Of a stretch of 3,435 bases of DNA, positions 1 through 3,435 are shown one piece after another. This stretch comes from a virus (lineage: Duplodnaviria; Heunggongvirae; Uroviricota; Caudoviricetes). The DNA lies in IMG/VR virus record IMGVR_UViG_2778261688_000003; one strand, 5' to 3'. The position numbers and the translations under genes were made by a program. Numbering within the stretch: the stretch's first letter is position 1; each line of letters starts with the position of its first letter. The notes beneath the pieces are model-generated. The model was not told where the DNA came from. It ran no database searches and saw nothing but the letters and a program-made list of their open reading frames with translations.

Positions 1-489
1 ATGTTGGATGTATTTACTCCATTGTTGAAACTTTTTGCTAACGAGCCACTCGAAAGACTTATGTATACGATTATCATTTTTGGTCTCACTCTCTGGCTGA
101 TACCGAAAGAGTTTACTGTCGCATTCAATGCTTATACTGAAATACCTTGGCTCTTTCAGATTATCGTTTTTGCCTTTTCTTTCGTGGTCGCCATTTCCTT
201 CTCAAGATTGCGAGCACATATTCAAAAGCATTATTCATTACTACCAGAGCAACGAGTATTGCTTCGTTTATCTGAGAAAGAAATCGCTGTATTTAAAGAT
301 TTCCTTAAAACAGGAAATCTTATTATCACTTCTCCTTGCCGTAACCCGGTTATGAAAAAATTAGAACGGAAGGGCATCATTCAACATCAGAGTGATAGCG
401 CAAACTGTTCTTATTATCTCGTCACCGAAAAATACTCCCATTTTATGAAGTTATTCTGGAACAGCAGGAGTAGACGTTTTAATCGTTAG
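1..489 (+). CDS. sieB: Superinfection exclusion protein B (SieB-like), 162 aa, small inner-membrane protein
   Basis: Complete ORF ATG(1)..TAG(487-489) from the six-frame track. Two hydrophobic helix-length segments (MYTIIIFGLTLWLIPKEF; IPWLFQIIVFAFSFVVAISF) followed by a charged C-terminal half. Size and sequence recalled as matching Rac prophage SieB; not verified by search. Confidence 0.8.
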   Translation: MLDVFTPLLKLFANEPLERLMYTIIIFGLTLWLIPKEFTVAFNAYTEIPWLFQIIVFAFSFVVAISFSRLRAHIQKHYSLLPEQRVLLRLSEKEIAVFKDFLKTGNLIITSPCRNPVMKKLERKGIIQHQSDSANCSYYLVTEKYSHFMKLFWNSRSRRFNR

Positions 490-641
490 CTTACTGTGTG
501 CTTCTCCAACCATCGGCGCGCACCAGTTTCGGTTTTAAATGTTTTGCTTTTGGTATACGTCATGGCAGTGAACGTTCCATCCTGGTTGGGGAACACGCCG
601 CACACCAGGGATTCGTTGTTGCCGAGGTCGATTTTTTGCAT
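486..641 (-). CDS. ydaF: Small prophage protein, 51 aa (YdaF-like), function unknown
   Basis: Hand translation of the minus strand: ATG at 641..639, TAA at 488..486, product MQKIDLGNNESLVCGVFPNQDGTFTAMTYTKSKTFKTETGARRWLEKHTVS. Below the size cut-off of the supplied ORF track. The 51-aa size and position between sieB and ydaG match the Rac gene order as I recall it. Only a weak SD (GAGA). Confidence 0.6.
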   Translation of the reverse strand: MQKIDLGNNESLVCGVFPNQDGTFTAMTYTKSKTFKTETGARRWLEKHTVS

Positions 642-651
642 TTTGCGAATC

Positions 652-786
652 TCACATCTTGTTGCTACGTATAGCGACTTCTGCCTGCCAGAGATCCCAG
701 TCGTTGCTGCGTAAAGCCTGCACAGCCTGGTTGTAAGTGATACCGCAACAATCCATCAAATACTGAACTACTTCGTAATGCACCAT
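652..786 (-). CDS. ydaG: Small prophage protein, 44 aa (YdaG-like), predicted single three-helix UBA-like domain
   Basis: Hand translation of the minus strand: ATG at 786..784, TGA at 654..652, product MVHYEVVQYLMDCCGITYNQAVQALRSNDWDLWQAEVAIRSNKM. Strong SD AGGGGAGAG (revcomp of 792-800) about 6 nt upstream of the ATG. Size and position match Rac ydaG as recalled. Confidence 0.7.
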   Translation of the reverse strand: MVHYEVVQYLMDCCGITYNQAVQALRSNDWDLWQAEVAIRSNKM

Positions 787-955
787 CTTATCTCTCCCCT
801 TAACGCCGGGTGGCGGAACTAACTGCTGCACTGCAAAATTTGAATCCCGCCGTCATGTTCATACGCCTCGGGCTGGCTACTTAACCCCTTACCACTGCCT
901 GGTAACTCGAAGTATTGCCCGGCGTTCTGTGGGGCGGGGTGGGTGGTATGCTGGA

Positions 956-984
956 ACTATAGGTAATGCCTAATTGATTGTCAA
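956..984 (-). promoter_or_regulatory. PL-like leftward sigma70 promoter: -35 TTGACA (984..979), 17-nt spacer, -10 TATAGT (961..956); predicted TSS near 949
   Basis: Read directly on the minus strand: consensus -35 hexamer and a 5/6 match -10 with optimal 17-nt spacing. It points toward ydaG-ydaF and is flanked or overlapped by two palindromic operator sites. Confidence 0.5.
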
Positions 985-997
985 TAGGCTATGCCTA
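960..997. promoter_or_regulatory. OL-like operator: two palindromic sites TAGGT-AAT-GCCTA (960-972) and TAGGC-TAT-GCCTA (985-997), centres 25 bp apart
   Basis: Same 5-3-5 palindrome family as the three sites between racR and ydaS. The sites sit within the promoter spacer and directly upstream of the -35, mirroring the OR arrangement. Confidence 0.5.
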
Positions 998-1094
998 ATG
1001 TTTTGAGCGTAACCTAATAGGTGATGGCGACAGCAGAAAGTGATGGGGGGGTTAAATAACGGAATCCAGGAGTTTTCCGTCAGACCATATAAGT

Positions 1095-1571
1095 TTAAGT
1101 TCCAGTTTTTGTGATGTTCTGGCTTTTCCGTTCAGATTCAAGAGCTTTCAGATACTTACCCACTTTCATTTCCATCGCTGCTATGTAGGCGCGAACATCG
1201 TGGTCAACCCAATCTGGTTCTGTAGCATTTCCAGATAACAGGAAAGCTACAATCGCTCTTATTTCATCAGAGGCTGCTTGATAAAGGTTGTTTATATCTA
1301 AAAGTTCACTTTTTGTATCTGAATTGGTGGGGGTTGGTATGGGGTATTCGTTAAGCCCCCAATGCTCTGGACCAACAACATCAGAAAAGAAACGCCATAA
1401 TTCTGGAAGTTTATCTTTACTTATAGAGCCTTTCTTAATCCAGTCATAAATTGATGGTGGTTGGACTTTAAAGTGGCGTGCGACCTCCGCCTTTGATTTG
1501 ACGGATCCCGATGCGATTTTTTTGTTAATGGCCTGCTCTATCGCTCGGCCTAAGTCTTTACCACTAAGCAT
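1095..1571 (-). CDS. racR: Prophage repressor RacR (CI-like HTH repressor), 158 aa
   Basis: ORF from the track, minus strand, ATG at 1571..1569, TAA at 1097..1095. SD AGGAG (revcomp of 1583-1587) 11 nt upstream. N-terminal HTH-like segment (KAEVARHFKVQPPSIYDWIKKG). Divergent from a Cro-like gene across an operator-rich intergenic region. Size and sequence match RacR as recalled. Confidence 0.88.
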   Translation of the reverse strand: MLSGKDLGRAIEQAINKKIASGSVKSKAEVARHFKVQPPSIYDWIKKGSISKDKLPELWRFFSDVVGPEHWGLNEYPIPTPTNSDTKSELLDINNLYQAASDEIRAIVAFLLSGNATEPDWVDHDVRAYIAAMEMKVGKYLKALESERKSQNITKTGT

Positions 1572-1593
1572 TGCTTAATATTCTCCTATGCGC

Positions 1594-1622
1594 ATTACAT
1601 TAGGCAATCCCTACCCTTACTG
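1594..1622 (-). promoter_or_regulatory. Candidate racR maintenance promoter (PRM-like): -10 TGTAAT (1599..1594) with a poor -35 region between operator sites 1 and 2
   Basis: 5/6 -10 hexamer on the minus strand about 23 nt upstream of the racR ATG, with no recognisable -35 (CAGTAA). This would fit an activator-dependent promoter with a very short leader, but it is weakly supported. Confidence 0.25.
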
Positions 1623-1664
1623 CATTAGGCACAGCCTATTGACAATTGCGTTAGGCGTCGCCTA
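1601..1664. promoter_or_regulatory. OR-like tripartite operator: TAGGC-AAT-CCCTA (1601-1613), TAGGC-ACA-GCCTA (1626-1638), TAGGC-GTC-GCCTA (1652-1664); centre spacing 25 and 26 bp
   Basis: Three 13-bp palindromes (5-3-5) read directly from the sequence. The racR-proximal site is the most degenerate (CCCTA half-site), analogous to a weak OR3-type site. Confidence 0.6.
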
Positions 1665-1668
1665 ATAT
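1639..1668 (+). promoter_or_regulatory. PR-like rightward sigma70 promoter for ydaS-ydaT: -35 TTGACA (1639-1644), 18-nt spacer, -10 TAATAT (1663-1668)
   Basis: Consensus -35 with a 4/6 -10 that retains T at -12, A at -11 and T at -7. Operator site 3 lies in the spacer and site 2 abuts the -35. ydaS SD GGAG (1683-1686) is 8 nt before ATG 1695. Confidence 0.55.
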
Positions 1669-1694
1669 TTCTGTGTGTTTTTGGAGTTCATTCG

Positions 1695-1991
1695 ATGAAA
1701 AAAGAGAACTATTCATTCAAGCAAGCTTGTGCTGTTGTCGGTGGGCAATCAGCAATGGCTAGGCTTTTAGGTGTATCACCTCCAAGCGTAAATCAATGGA
1801 TCAAAGGGGTACGTCAATTGCCTGCCGAGAGATGTCCAGCAATTGAACGTGCAACAAGAGGTGAGGTTCTGTGCGAAGAACTTCGTCCTGATATTGACTG
1901 GTCATATTTACGACGTTCGGCATGTTGTTCGCAGAATATGTCAGTGAAGCAACTAAATGACAGTAACAAATCCTCATTTGATCATACCTGA
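1695..1991 (+). CDS. ydaS: Cro-like HTH DNA-binding protein YdaS, 98 aa
   Basis: ORF from the track, ATG 1695 to TGA 1989-1991, good SD. First gene rightward of the repressor, in the Cro position. HTH-like segment (QSAMARLLGVSPPSVNQWIKG). Size matches Rac YdaS. Confidence 0.88.
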   Translation: MKKENYSFKQACAVVGGQSAMARLLGVSPPSVNQWIKGVRQLPAERCPAIERATRGEVLCEELRPDIDWSYLRRSACCSQNMSVKQLNDSNKSSFDHT

Positions 1992-2013
1992 AACATCAAG
2001 AGGCAAATGATTC

Positions 2014-2436
2014 ATGAAAATCAAGCATGAGCACATCGAATCAGTGTTGTTTGCCCTAGCAGCCGAAAAAGGGCAGGCATGGGTAGCCAATGCAATTACT
2101 GAAGAATATCTGCGCCAGGGGGGCGGCGAATTGCCCCTGGTTCCAGGCAAGGACTGGAACAATCAGCAGAATATCTATCACCGTTGGTTGAAAGGTGAAA
2201 CGAAAACGCAAAGAGAAAAAATTCAGAAGCTGATCCCAGCAATTCTGGCAATCCTTCCGCGCGAGCTGCGTCACCGACTCTGCATCTTCGATACCCTGGA
2301 ACGCCGTGCATTACTGGCGGCGCAGGAAGCGTTAAGTACGGCAATTGATGCGCATGATGATGCAGTCCAAGCCGTTTACCGGAAAGCGCATTTCAGCGGC
2401 GGCGGTTCTTCCGACGATTCTGTCATTGTTCATTAA
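2014..2436 (+). CDS. ydaT: YdaT, 140 aa, CII-position protein of the Rac early-right operon
   Basis: ORF from the track, ATG 2014 to TAA 2434-2436. SD AAGAGG (1998-2003) 10 nt upstream. Follows ydaS after a 22-nt gap. Size and sequence match Rac YdaT as recalled. Confidence 0.88.
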   Translation: MKIKHEHIESVLFALAAEKGQAWVANAITEEYLRQGGGELPLVPGKDWNNQQNIYHRWLKGETKTQREKIQKLIPAILAILPRELRHRLCIFDTLERRALLAAQEALSTAIDAHDDAVQAVYRKAHFSGGGSSDDSVIVH

Positions 2437-2499
2437 GCAAAAGTTTCCATGCTGTTTGTGCTTATTCTAAGCCACCGGGCAGCATCATACGGGGCAATT

Positions 2500-3435
2500 A
2501 TGGCCGCATTACCATACATGCAACTGTACATAGCTGATTACCTGGCTGACACCATGCATTTGTCAGCAGAGGAGCATGGTGCGTATTTGTTGCTGATGTT
2601 CAATTACTGGCAAACAGGAAAGCCAATACCTAAAAACAGGCTGGCAAAAATTGCCCGTCTGACTAACGAGCGATGGGCTGATGTTGAACCATCCTTGCAG
2701 GAGTTTTTTTGCGATAACGGCGAGGAATGGGTGCATCTTCGGATTGAGGAAGATCTGGCATCAGTCAGGGAAAAATTAACCAAAAAATCAGCCGCAGGAA
2801 AAGCATCTGTTCAGGCCAGAAGAAGCAGAAAGGAAGCAGATGTTCAAACAAAACAAGAGAGAAATTTAACAGGTGTTCAAACAGATGTTGAAGTGGTGTT
2901 TGAACATGATGTCAACACAAAGGCAACTAATAAAGATACAGATAAAGATCTAAAAACAGATCCCCCCCTAAATCCCCCCCGGGGGAATCGAGGTGTCAAA
3001 AAGTTTGACCCTCTGGATATTACTTTGCCGAACTGGATTTCTGTCTCGCTTTGGCGTGAGTGGGTTGAATTTCGCCAGGCATTGCGAAAACCGATTCGAA
3101 CGGAGCAGGGCGCTAACGGGGCGATAAGCGGTCGCGAGACGTTACGGGCTCTGGAGGCTAAAACCGGTGCATCAAGGTATTACATAAGCACTCTCGCCAG
3201 AGAACTAGTCGCCAGTGGTGATGTTTACAATTCAGGCTACGGATTATTCCCGTCTGAGCAGGCGCGTAAAGACTGGCAAAACGCCCGCAAAAAACTATCA
3301 AGGACAAAGGTGAAGAAACCGGTTGTGGTTGATCCTGACCTTATCTGGTCATTACCAGACGGAGAAATACGCCGTTACGACAGGCGTCTGAACATAATCT
3401 GTCGCGAGTGCCTGAAGAGTGAAGTTATGCAGTGA
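2500..3435 (+). CDS. ydaU: YdaU-like DUF1376-family prophage protein (putative replication-initiator position), ending at the window edge with TGA
   Basis: Long ORF 2449..3435 in the track. The start is placed at ATG 2500 (M18) because the sequence MAALPYMQLYIADYLADT... looks like the conserved family N-terminus and a G-rich SD-like element (GGGG 2491-2494) precedes it. ATG 2449 and ATG 2518 lack an SD. Start choice is uncertain. Confidence 0.75.
   Translation: MAALPYMQLYIADYLADTMHLSAEEHGAYLLLMFNYWQTGKPIPKNRLAKIARLTNERWADVEPSLQEFFCDNGEEWVHLRIEEDLASVREKLTKKSAAGKASVQARRSRKEADVQTKQERNLTGVQTDVEVVFEHDVNTKATNKDTDKDLKTDPPLNPPRGNRGVKKFDPLDITLPNWISVSLWREWVEFRQALRKPIRTEQGANGAISGRETLRALEAKTGASRYYISTLARELVASGDVYNSGYGLFPSEQARKDWQNARKKLSRTKVKKPVVVDPDLIWSLPDGEIRRYDRRLNIICRECLKSEVMQ
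2837..2919. repeat. Iteron-like cluster inside ydaU: TGTTCAAACA direct copies (2841-2850, 2874-2883), inverted copy TGTTTGAACA (2897-2906), CAGATGTT (2837-2844, 2882-2889), degenerate copy GATGTCAACA (2908-2917)
   Basis: Read directly from the sequence. Followed by an A-rich stretch (2920-2960) and two C7 tracts. Position in the linker of the putative initiator gene resembles the arrangement of lambda ori inside gene O. Confidence 0.4.

Follow-up and report, generated by a model that had tools for sequence, protein, structure and literature searches.

The racR-ydaS-ydaT module of the Rac prophage, which lies at positions 1095 to 2436 of the DNA analysed here (the window, 3,435 nucleotides of IMG/VR virus record IMGVR_UViG_2778261688_000003), is best understood as a lambdoid immunity switch between lysis and lysogeny that is built like the CI-Cro-CII circuit, works with a repressor lacking any link to the SOS response, and flips when the amount of active RacR falls. 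The probability of this reading is put at roughly 70%. Positions 1-3126 of the window are 100% identical to Escherichia coli K-12 MG1655 (NC_000913.3 1418671-1421796) and to strain BR1220, and the gene positions given by RefSeq for the same DNA equal the open reading frame (ORF) calls made in the window, so that the placement of the three genes in the preliminary description of this DNA is exact. RacR, the immunity repressor and functional analogue of lambda CI, is encoded on the minus strand (1095-1571; 158 residues; ORF call, RefSeq and NCBIfam NF049929), while the Cro-type regulator YdaS (1695-1991; 98 residues) and the CII-type activator YdaT (2014-2436; 140 residues) are encoded divergently on the plus strand.

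RacR belongs to the family described by the NCBIfam RacR equivalog NF049929, against which it scores 244.6 bits at a cut-off of 200 (E=4.2e-73). Its helix-turn-helix (HTH) is weak at the level of sequence, the Pfam matches to HTH_17 (E=0.002) and YdaS_toxin (E=0.012) both falling below the cut-off, and the domain structure is drawn instead from AlphaFold2 models (for RacR, 28 homologues and a mean predicted local distance difference test score, pLDDT, of 81.5), on which the structural statements made here rest. The model places five helices within residues 4-71 and three more at residues 87-99, 102-112 and 124-153, with zero beta strands. The domain at the N-terminus that binds DNA (residues 1-73, window 1353-1571, minus strand), which ends in ...VVGPEHWGL, is modelled as a lambda-repressor-like HTH, a five-helix bundle superposable on the N-terminal domains of CI, 434 or P22 C2. 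It is followed by a disordered linker (residues 74-86, or about 73-86; window 1314-1352, minus strand), with pLDDT below 50 at residues 79-87, and by a C-terminal domain (residues 87-158, window 1098-1313, minus strand) that consists of three helices and a basic disordered tail ending in KTGT. Beyond its likeness to the repressors, the N-domain (1353-1571) also weakly resembles the Cro-type YdaS family itself (PF15943, the E=0.012 match) and the Cro of Gifsy-2 (L008 7394-7633; tblastn E=0.004).

The self-cleaving repressors of the LexA/CI kind carry a Peptidase_S24 domain, a beta fold, and RacR lacks every feature of that class (MEROPS S24) that was looked for, namely the domain, the scissile bond, the catalytic dyad and the beta fold. 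Full-length RacR gives no Peptidase_S24 match at E<=1, and residues 74-158 alone give no match to Peptidase_S24 (PF00717) at E<=10. No Ala-Gly or Cys-Gly dipeptide occurs in the 158 residues, which contain no Cys at all, nor is there a Ser-Lys dyad motif such as S24-bearing relatives possess (GDSM...K). The C-terminal half is a small three-helix domain and not S24, and therefore RecA-stimulated self-cleavage by the LexA/CI mechanism is not to be expected. The preliminary description had given RacR an N-terminal HTH and a C-terminal half without S24 signature, and had expected no RecA-stimulated cleavage. All of this is upheld: the hidden Markov model search that it proposed is negative for RacR and positive for relatives, the modelled C-terminal half is free of strands and of Ala-Gly or Cys-Gly sites, the sub-cut-off HTH match is joined by a five-helix domain like that of lambda CI, and the absence of cleavage is supported by the sequence and fold tests as well as by four published studies (PMC4632033, PMC11228462, PMC3121763, PMC11014345).

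The relatives in question were found by homology search and comprise four proteins of 227-256 residues each (P0103 from Pectobacterium, P0105, P0114 and P0117) whose N-terminal approximately 75 residues are 70-82% identical to those of RacR. In the comparison with P0105, 63 of 77 residues are identical and the similarity stops at about residue 77. The C-terminal halves of all four match Peptidase_S24 with E-values of 6e-13 to 2e-21 in the scan applied to RacR, and show the SAGN, GDSM and conserved Lys motifs; because the same scan detects S24 in four relatives of the N-domain, the negative result for RacR is not a problem of sensitivity. With their canonical S24 domain, Ala-Gly site and GDSM...K motifs, these relatives would be expected to be cleaved in a RecA-dependent manner. 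The DNA-binding domain of RacR thus appears to belong to a family otherwise made up of classical self-cleaving repressors, from which its C-terminal module differs. The likeness extends to the DNA: the P0105 locus is a lambdoid prophage in which the repressor gene is divergent from a YdaS-type cro, and its intergenic sites (TTAGGC-cat-GCCTAA, TAGGA-att-GCCTA and TTAGGC-aat-GCTTAG, the last lying across the repressor start codon) have the operator half-site and arrangement in common with Rac. The same N-domain and operators would therefore occur with either an S24 domain or a helical C-terminal domain, which makes the latter, as we infer, an exchangeable module; this is new here. The exchange point among the relatives is the linker region, where the likeness to the S24-bearing proteins ends.

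The operators of the rightward side are well established. Four palindromes of the TAGGC-N3-GCCTA type lie between racR and ydaS, at 1565-1577 (across the racR ATG, with two mismatches), 1601-1613 (one mismatch), 1626-1638 and 1652-1664 (no mismatch in either), with centre spacings of 36, 25 and 26 bp. The heptamer GCCTAAT is present five times in the window, where 0.5 would be expected, and reached five in none of 200 shuffles, which is why the repeat is not attributed to chance. Footprinted RacR operators matching these OR sites have been published (PMC9638921; four inverted repeats in PMC11014345), and operators, promoters and repression in vitro have been characterised (PMC9638921). The rightward promoter PR (PydaST; 1639-1668, plus strand) consists of TTGACA, an 18-bp spacer and TAATAT, the hexamers and spacing being those reported in PMC11879457; the palindrome at 1626-1638 abuts its -35 hexamer and that at 1652-1664 overlaps its spacer and -10 hexamer. 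A divergent repressor and cro with a multi-operator region overlapping both promoters is the layout of a lambdoid immunity region.

The two divergent genes fit this layout. YdaS matches Pfam YdaS_toxin (E=2.6e-31), PHROG 35 (transcriptional repressor) and P22_Cro (E=3.4e-9; 36.8 bits against a cut-off of 30.2), and YdaT matches Pfam YdaT_toxin (E=1.8e-11) and PHROG 163, 'CII-like transcriptional activator' (E=2.2e-37). In the literature, too, they are described as Cro/CII-type regulators (PMC5917428, PMC8630535, PMC9986795, PMC11879457), and the preliminary description was right both to call them so and to recall that racR is essential since derepression of ydaS and ydaT is toxic, as has been published (PMC5700373, PMC5700377, PMC5917430). 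The YdaT-box, ATGATTCATGAAAATCAA, spans the ydaT start codon (2007-2024) and has the same sequence as the site footprinted in PMC11879457. Within ydaS lies the -35 hexamer TTGACG (1812-1817, minus strand) of PracR4, the analogue of lambda PRE; it is the sole TTGACG on the minus strand of the window and stands 190 bp from the YdaT-box, in agreement with PMC11879457. The lambdoid arrangement of a CII-type activator downstream of cro acting on a reverse repressor promoter is thus present, and its function has been demonstrated: YdaT activates racR from PracR4, and OxyR represses PydaST (PMC11879457). YdaS has been reported not to repress racR (PMC9638921), and Rac excision is triggered by overexpression of YdaS, not by that of YdaT (PMC11014345).

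Downstream of racR, outside the module delimited in the preliminary description, two further RacR-type palindromes, TAGGTaatGCCTA at 960-972 and TAGGCtatGCCTA at 985-997, lie 25 bp apart and are put forward as OL. They sit on a putative leftward promoter, PL (984 to 956, minus strand), composed of TTGACA, 17 bp and TATAGT, with 11 of 12 matches to the sigma-70 consensus, which would read leftward into ydaG and ydaF and then in the direction of kilR, recET and xis-int. The geometry of PL and PR is alike, one palindrome abutting the -35 hexamer and the other overlapping spacer and -10, and a 35-nt inverted repeat pairs 977-1011 with 1612-1646 at 83% complementarity. Across the 25-kb K-12 Rac locus, palindromes with at most two mismatches are confined to the OL (two) and OR (four) clusters. 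Three other elements, namely L004, the Klebsiella phage KpF5 (L006) and L089, carry the same pair with 25-bp spacing downstream of their repressor gene, which makes four with Rac. At the sequence level, then, Rac has the OL/PL counterpart that a lambdoid immunity region would be expected to possess. Depletion of RacR raises kilR, ydaE, ydaG, racC, recE, recT, ralR, xisR and intR in RNA sequencing (bioRxiv 10.64898/2026.09.06.749655), and ydaF rises upon expression of C.Csp231I, the left-arm genes being raised 40-70-fold as RacR falls (PMC11014345); the published transcriptomes fit direct control of the leftward operon by RacR. The open-access RacR literature covered makes no mention of an operator pair at 956-997, and a putative second RacR operator pair on a near-consensus promoter is accordingly offered as a new prediction.

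The first genes of the leftward operon are small. ydaG is annotated at 652-786 (minus strand), with the ORF extending up to a GTG at 831; the resulting 59-residue ORF (652-831) matches UBA_4 with E=7e-5, just above the cut-off. The second, ydaF (486-641, minus strand), matches DUF1391 (E=1.9e-28). Both tiny proteins fall into PHROGs of unknown function (14709 and 751, respectively), and the two genes hold the position of N in lambda.

The C-terminal domain of RacR is probably an oligomerisation module. RacR is an octamer by size-exclusion chromatography, with oligomerisation ascribed to this domain from structural models, and its fold has been described as entirely unlike that of lambda CI (PMC11014345). 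It has no match in Pfam, PHROG, PDB or BFVD and no structural neighbour; a search of PDB sequences with RacR (phmmer) returned a single match at E=1.6, which was put down to chance. A profile of the domain retrieves only 46 matches at E<=1e-3 from 1.84 billion representative proteins, and it sits C-terminally on unrelated HTH N-termini, among them HTH_3/XRE types (P0123, P0125, P0142), the 'MKDIDEIRR...' type (P0126, P0128, P0136), the RacR type (P0137) and others. By this distribution the domain appears to be a rare, orphan and portable cassette, which is also new here. A search for related loci with the same profile found near-identical Rac copies only, which offer no diversity for neighbourhood analysis. 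Proteins of about 90 residues such as P0092 were considered as a third, 'N-domain-only' architecture and rejected, as they derive from frameshifted racR genes with the C-domain encoded at 87% identity in another frame. These alleles (L089 4001-4473; L090 457-929) adjoin genes of the ydaS and ydaT families, which in the complete genome L089 are called as complete ORFs; this suggests either repression by the N-domain on its own or a frameshift of very recent date.

The end of the cassette is conserved. Among 104 RacR-type C-domain proteins, the C-terminus is TG[TS] in 45 and Ala in 40, Lys at -4 is usual, and the final 15 residues contain on average 4 K/R against 1.3 D/E. In RacR, this basic tail comprises residues of about 144-158, corresponding to window positions 1098-1142, and is predicted to be disordered (pLDDT below 50 at residues 155-158 in the AlphaFold2 model). 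It might serve for docking, as a degron or as an arm in contact with DNA. A speculative extension, held only tentatively, is that the C-terminal domain is a portable receiver-and-oligomerisation cassette, swapped with S24 on one N-domain and operator set so as to toggle the immunity type between SOS-inducible and SOS-blind, and that the K-x-x-T/A tail is the handle for an antirepressor or protease answering a signal other than DNA damage.

Several means of flipping the switch have been reported. Rac undergoes zygotic induction, according to the account in PMC5917428 (citing Low 1973 and Feinstein & Low 1982), and loss of RacR through transcriptional interference by C.Csp231I or through CRISPR interference lifts repression of the entire element, with excision as the outcome (PMC11014345; bioRxiv 10.64898/2026.09.06.749655). 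Stationary phase and biofilm growth raise Rac excision by way of RpoS and H-NS, acting on xisR or excision, and mitomycin C does not induce it (PMC4632033). LexA-dependent induction among the K-12 cryptic prophages spanned e14 and no other (PMC11228462). RacR and DicA have been listed among small repressors of about 150 residues that are unlikely to self-cleave and are candidates for antirepressor control (Lemire 2011, PMC3121763), and the open-access literature covered here reports no physiological inactivator of RacR. The statement in the preliminary description that it remains open how the switch flips is thus only partly right: zygotic induction, C.Csp231I, CRISPR interference and YdaS overexpression are known to do so.

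An SOS input encoded by Rac itself was sought with a LexA-box scan based on the consensus (CTGT-N8-ACAG, and CTG-N10-CAG with at most six consensus mismatches) and applied to a small number of Rac variants. K-12 Rac, the fuller 55-kb Rac of ON470595, BR1220 and KpF5 (between them the loci L001, L003 with L007, L005 and L006) gave no LexA-like box, while the scanner recovered, as a control, the known box upstream of dinI in Gifsy-2, at 11080. STM1020.1n, a small ORF downstream of Gifsy-2 dinI, was taken as the likely gene for the GftA antirepressor. When Gifsy-2 DinI, STM1020.1n and GtgR were compared with the Rac loci by tblastn, no significant match to racR or to any small ORF was obtained, and only a ydaE homologue was matched. 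The Rac loci thus hold no LexA-box-controlled antirepressor gene detectable by these searches, and a cis-encoded LexA-controlled antirepressor in Rac is not supported. Among 80 further Rac-like loci from IMG/VR, the only LexA-like site to recur falls within the opening codons of an ORF whose N-terminus looks methyltransferase-like, and was set aside; one further exact site is within chance expectation. The LexA-box-like sequences TGCTGTTTAAATTTACAGTA and AACTGGATATTTTTACAGTA, at 3647-3666 in L004, at 206-225 in L017 and in five other Rac-like loci, coincide with the opening codons of an ORF. The ORF of L004 is a called N6_N4_Mtase gene, and those of the Rac-like loci are methyltransferase-like by their translated N-terminus only. 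These sites could be due to chance or to SOS control of that gene, and are unrelated to RacR. At the place where Gifsy-2 has dinI and the presumed antirepressor ORF, ON470595 carries genes for an FtsH-like cell-division protein and an S8-family peptidase (L003 26064-29457), which may be a defence or accessory insert.

In the mechanism proposed for the switch, some parts are established here or in print: the five-helix HTH of RacR binds the 13-bp TAGGC-N3-GCCTA palindromes, and from the four sites that cover PR and the racR start codon, RacR silences ydaS, ydaT and the downstream replication genes and regulates its own synthesis. YdaT at its box over the ydaT start likewise drives the reverse promoter within ydaS to give more racR expression, in the manner of PRE. 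The OL pair would place the ydaG-ydaF-kilR-recET-xis-int arm under direct control of RacR, and an octamer of RacR might link OL with OR, about 600 bp away, as lambda CI does. Rac would have no damage sensor in cis, its state changing only when the concentration of active RacR drops, which might happen on entry into a repressor-free cell (zygotic induction), by interference at racR, by stochastic dips or through a factor in trans. YdaS would then lock the derepressed state, and expression of xis and int would lead to excision. Several points weigh against this account. Binding of RacR at OL, PL activity and looping between OL and OR are predictions from sequence and comparative data, and the claim that no damage sensor exists in cis draws on consensus LexA-box scans of a few Rac variants, while signals other than LexA or distantly placed genes might still provide one. 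K-12 Rac is defective and may have lost an inducer module. Some regulated input to excision exists, at least at xisR, since biofilm growth and stationary phase affect it by way of RpoS and H-NS (PMC4632033). The conserved disordered basic K-x-x-T/A tail, moreover, suggests a specific partner for RacR, and a purely passive model leaves the tail unexplained.

Two alternatives supply such an input. An antirepressor, a small protein from an intact Rac-like phage or a co-resident prophage that is possibly under LexA control, might strip RacR from its operators in the way of Gifsy GfoA/GftA, 186 Tum, N15 AntC or P22/SPC32H Ant. This is unlikely on present evidence. In its favour, RacR is a named candidate for such control and antirepressors can act in trans between prophages (PMC3121763), a RacR-family repressor with 56% identity occurs in Klebsiella phage KpF5, which was isolated as virions, and a portable C-domain cassette with a conserved disordered tail is what would be expected of a docking surface. 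On the other hand, K-12 Rac, ON470595 and KpF5 yielded no LexA-like box and no homologue of DinI or STM1020.1n in searches whose Gifsy-2 control worked, the 80 further Rac-like loci gave as their only recurrent LexA-like site the one at a methyltransferase-like ORF start, and Gifsy-2 GtgR has no detectable sequence similarity to RacR; nor does mitomycin C induce Rac excision in K-12 (PMC4632033). Regulated proteolysis, in which an AAA+ protease such as ClpXP or Lon would recognise the basic tail in stationary phase or biofilms as in the case of the phage Mu repressor, is improbable. The tail is disordered by prediction (residues 155-158), basic (4 K/R against 1.3 D/E in the final 15 residues) and conserved at its end (TG[TS] in 45 and Ala in 40 of 104, with Lys at -4), and ...KKxxA-COOH tails may be similar to the MuA- or ssrA-type signals for ClpX. 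KTGT, however, is not known to be a degron, a basic tail might just as well touch DNA or neighbouring dimers, and the literature search gave no experimental report on RacR stability. The rise of Rac excision in stationary phase and biofilms, which would suit proteolysis, has been ascribed to the action of RpoS on xisR and not to RacR (PMC4632033).

The remaining alternatives differ from the immunity switch in what they take the module or the repressor to be. It might be a toxin-repressor module of the addiction type, which kills or arrests cells losing RacR rather than serving as a developmental switch of a phage. racR can be deleted only without ydaS and ydaT, whose expression is toxic (PMC5700373, PMC5700377), ydaS is limited to strains that also have racR (PMC5700373), and the Pfam families bear the names 'YdaS_toxin' and 'YdaT_toxin'. 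Against this stands the full lambdoid layout, with divergent repressor and cro, CII-type YdaT, O-like ydaU, mirrored OL/PL and OR/PR and a PRE-like promoter (PMC11879457), and the nature of YdaS and YdaT as regulators that bind DNA (PMC9986795, PMC11879457). A 2010 study showed no toxin-antitoxin behaviour, as far as it is summarised in PMC5917428 (Christensen-Dalsgaard 2010), the original authors concede that toxicity is probably a side effect (PMC5917430), and toxicity of YdaT through transcriptional mis-regulation, via rcsA, has largely been shown (PMC11879457). The architecture, with YdaS and YdaT both predicted HTH regulators, argues against a type II toxin-antitoxin system, and an addiction role is very improbable. 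Least credible of all is an RecA-stimulated or otherwise autocatalytic cleavage of RacR by a cryptic non-S24 mechanism in the linker, for which the single argument is that a long disordered linker (73-86) joins the domains where lambda CI is cut. S24 is undetected at E<=10, beta structure, Ala-Gly or Cys-Gly and a GDSM...K dyad motif are all lacking, and neither mitomycin C induction (PMC4632033) nor LexA-dependent induction of Rac in K-12 (PMC11228462) has been seen.

The rest of the window is that of K-12 Rac up to a single junction. RefSeq annotation of the identical DNA gives sieB at 1-489 and, beginning at 2449, the O-like ydaU (DUF1376), both on the plus strand, and an Rfam scan of the window gave no credible RNA family. 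At 3126/3127, within an ORF of 2449-3435, ydaU is joined in frame to the final 309 nt of a DUF977 gene. Compared with BR1220, the window is missing 1801 bp, which in that strain hold the last part of ydaU, then ydaV, a DUF1627 gene and the beginning of the DUF977 gene. The junction shows no microhomology and is present in 0 of 5426 complete E. coli genomes and 0 of 80 Rac loci from IMG/VR, and is either a rare deletion or an assembly artefact of the window.

That RacR lacks a self-cleaving domain is correct and already known, and every statement of the preliminary description is in print, as are the different fold of the C-terminal domain, the lack of induction by mitomycin C and the antirepressor hypothesis. 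What is added here is modest, and consists of the apparent exchange of S24 and helical modules, the orphan and seemingly portable C-domain, its conserved tail, and the predicted OL/PL. These bear on an element of which most E. coli genomes carry at least a portion (some part of the window is matched in 3917 of 5426 complete genomes) and whose repressor is among the few essential transcription factors of K-12. The blindness of RacR to RecA would account for the indifference of Rac to DNA damage, to which e14 and lambda do respond. An exchange of the C-terminal modules is predicted to turn Rac immunity from SOS-blind into SOS-inducible or back, and the C-terminal tail is the place to look for the missing input.

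Among known systems, the CI/Cro/CII region of lambda is like that of Rac in its divergent repressor and cro, its several palindromic operators, spaced by about 24-26 bp, on a strong rightward promoter, its second operator set on the leftward promoter (predicted in Rac), its downstream replication genes, its CII-type activator of a reverse repressor promoter and its octameric repressor (published for RacR). The two differ in that the C-terminal domain of RacR is a three-helix module instead of the S24 beta fold, hence the expected absence of RecA-mediated cleavage, and in the Rac operator, TAGGC-N3-GCCTA, of which one copy lies across the racR start codon. They also differ in the reported failure of YdaS to repress racR (PMC9638921) and in the distance between OL and OR, only about 600 bp in Rac. 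Coliphage 186 CI, which is subject to the Tum antirepressor, likewise lacks S24 and forms higher-order oligomers through a helical C-terminal domain, though the match is dominated by the lambda N-domain and the Rac loci yielded no Tum or DinI-like gene. The repressors of Gifsy-1/2/3 (GfoR, GtgR, GftR) are small, non-cleavable and lambdoid, with a recET-type left arm, and RacR has been named a candidate for their class of LexA-controlled antirepression (PMC3121763). The Rac loci, however, showed neither a LexA box nor a dinI-antirepressor unit, the similarity between GtgR and RacR is undetectable even though RacR has been listed as a gfoR/gtgR homologue, and GfoR and GtgR resemble the N-terminal domain of CI over nearly their full length (PMC3121763), whereas RacR has a distinct helical C-domain.

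The closest described analogue is the PaaR2-YdaS-YdaT region of CP-933P in E. coli O157:H7, which agrees with Rac in gene order and in the families of its YdaS and YdaT. Its repressor is described as CI-like but devoid of a peptidase motif and unresponsive to mitomycin C, and the switch is bistable and SOS-independent (PMC8630535); its YdaT-box is nearly identical to that of Rac (PMC9986795, PMC11879457). In contrast to Rac, PaaR2 is co-transcribed with the toxin-antitoxin pair paaA2-parE2, and the CP-933P YdaT is without toxicity and shows no binding to the intergenic region. The S24-bearing relatives (P0103, P0105, P0114 and P0117) differ in their canonical Peptidase_S24 domain and in the cII and replication modules downstream, but share with Rac 70-82% identity over residues 1-77 of the repressor, the operator half-sites, the site at the start codon, the OL pair and the divergent YdaS-type cro.

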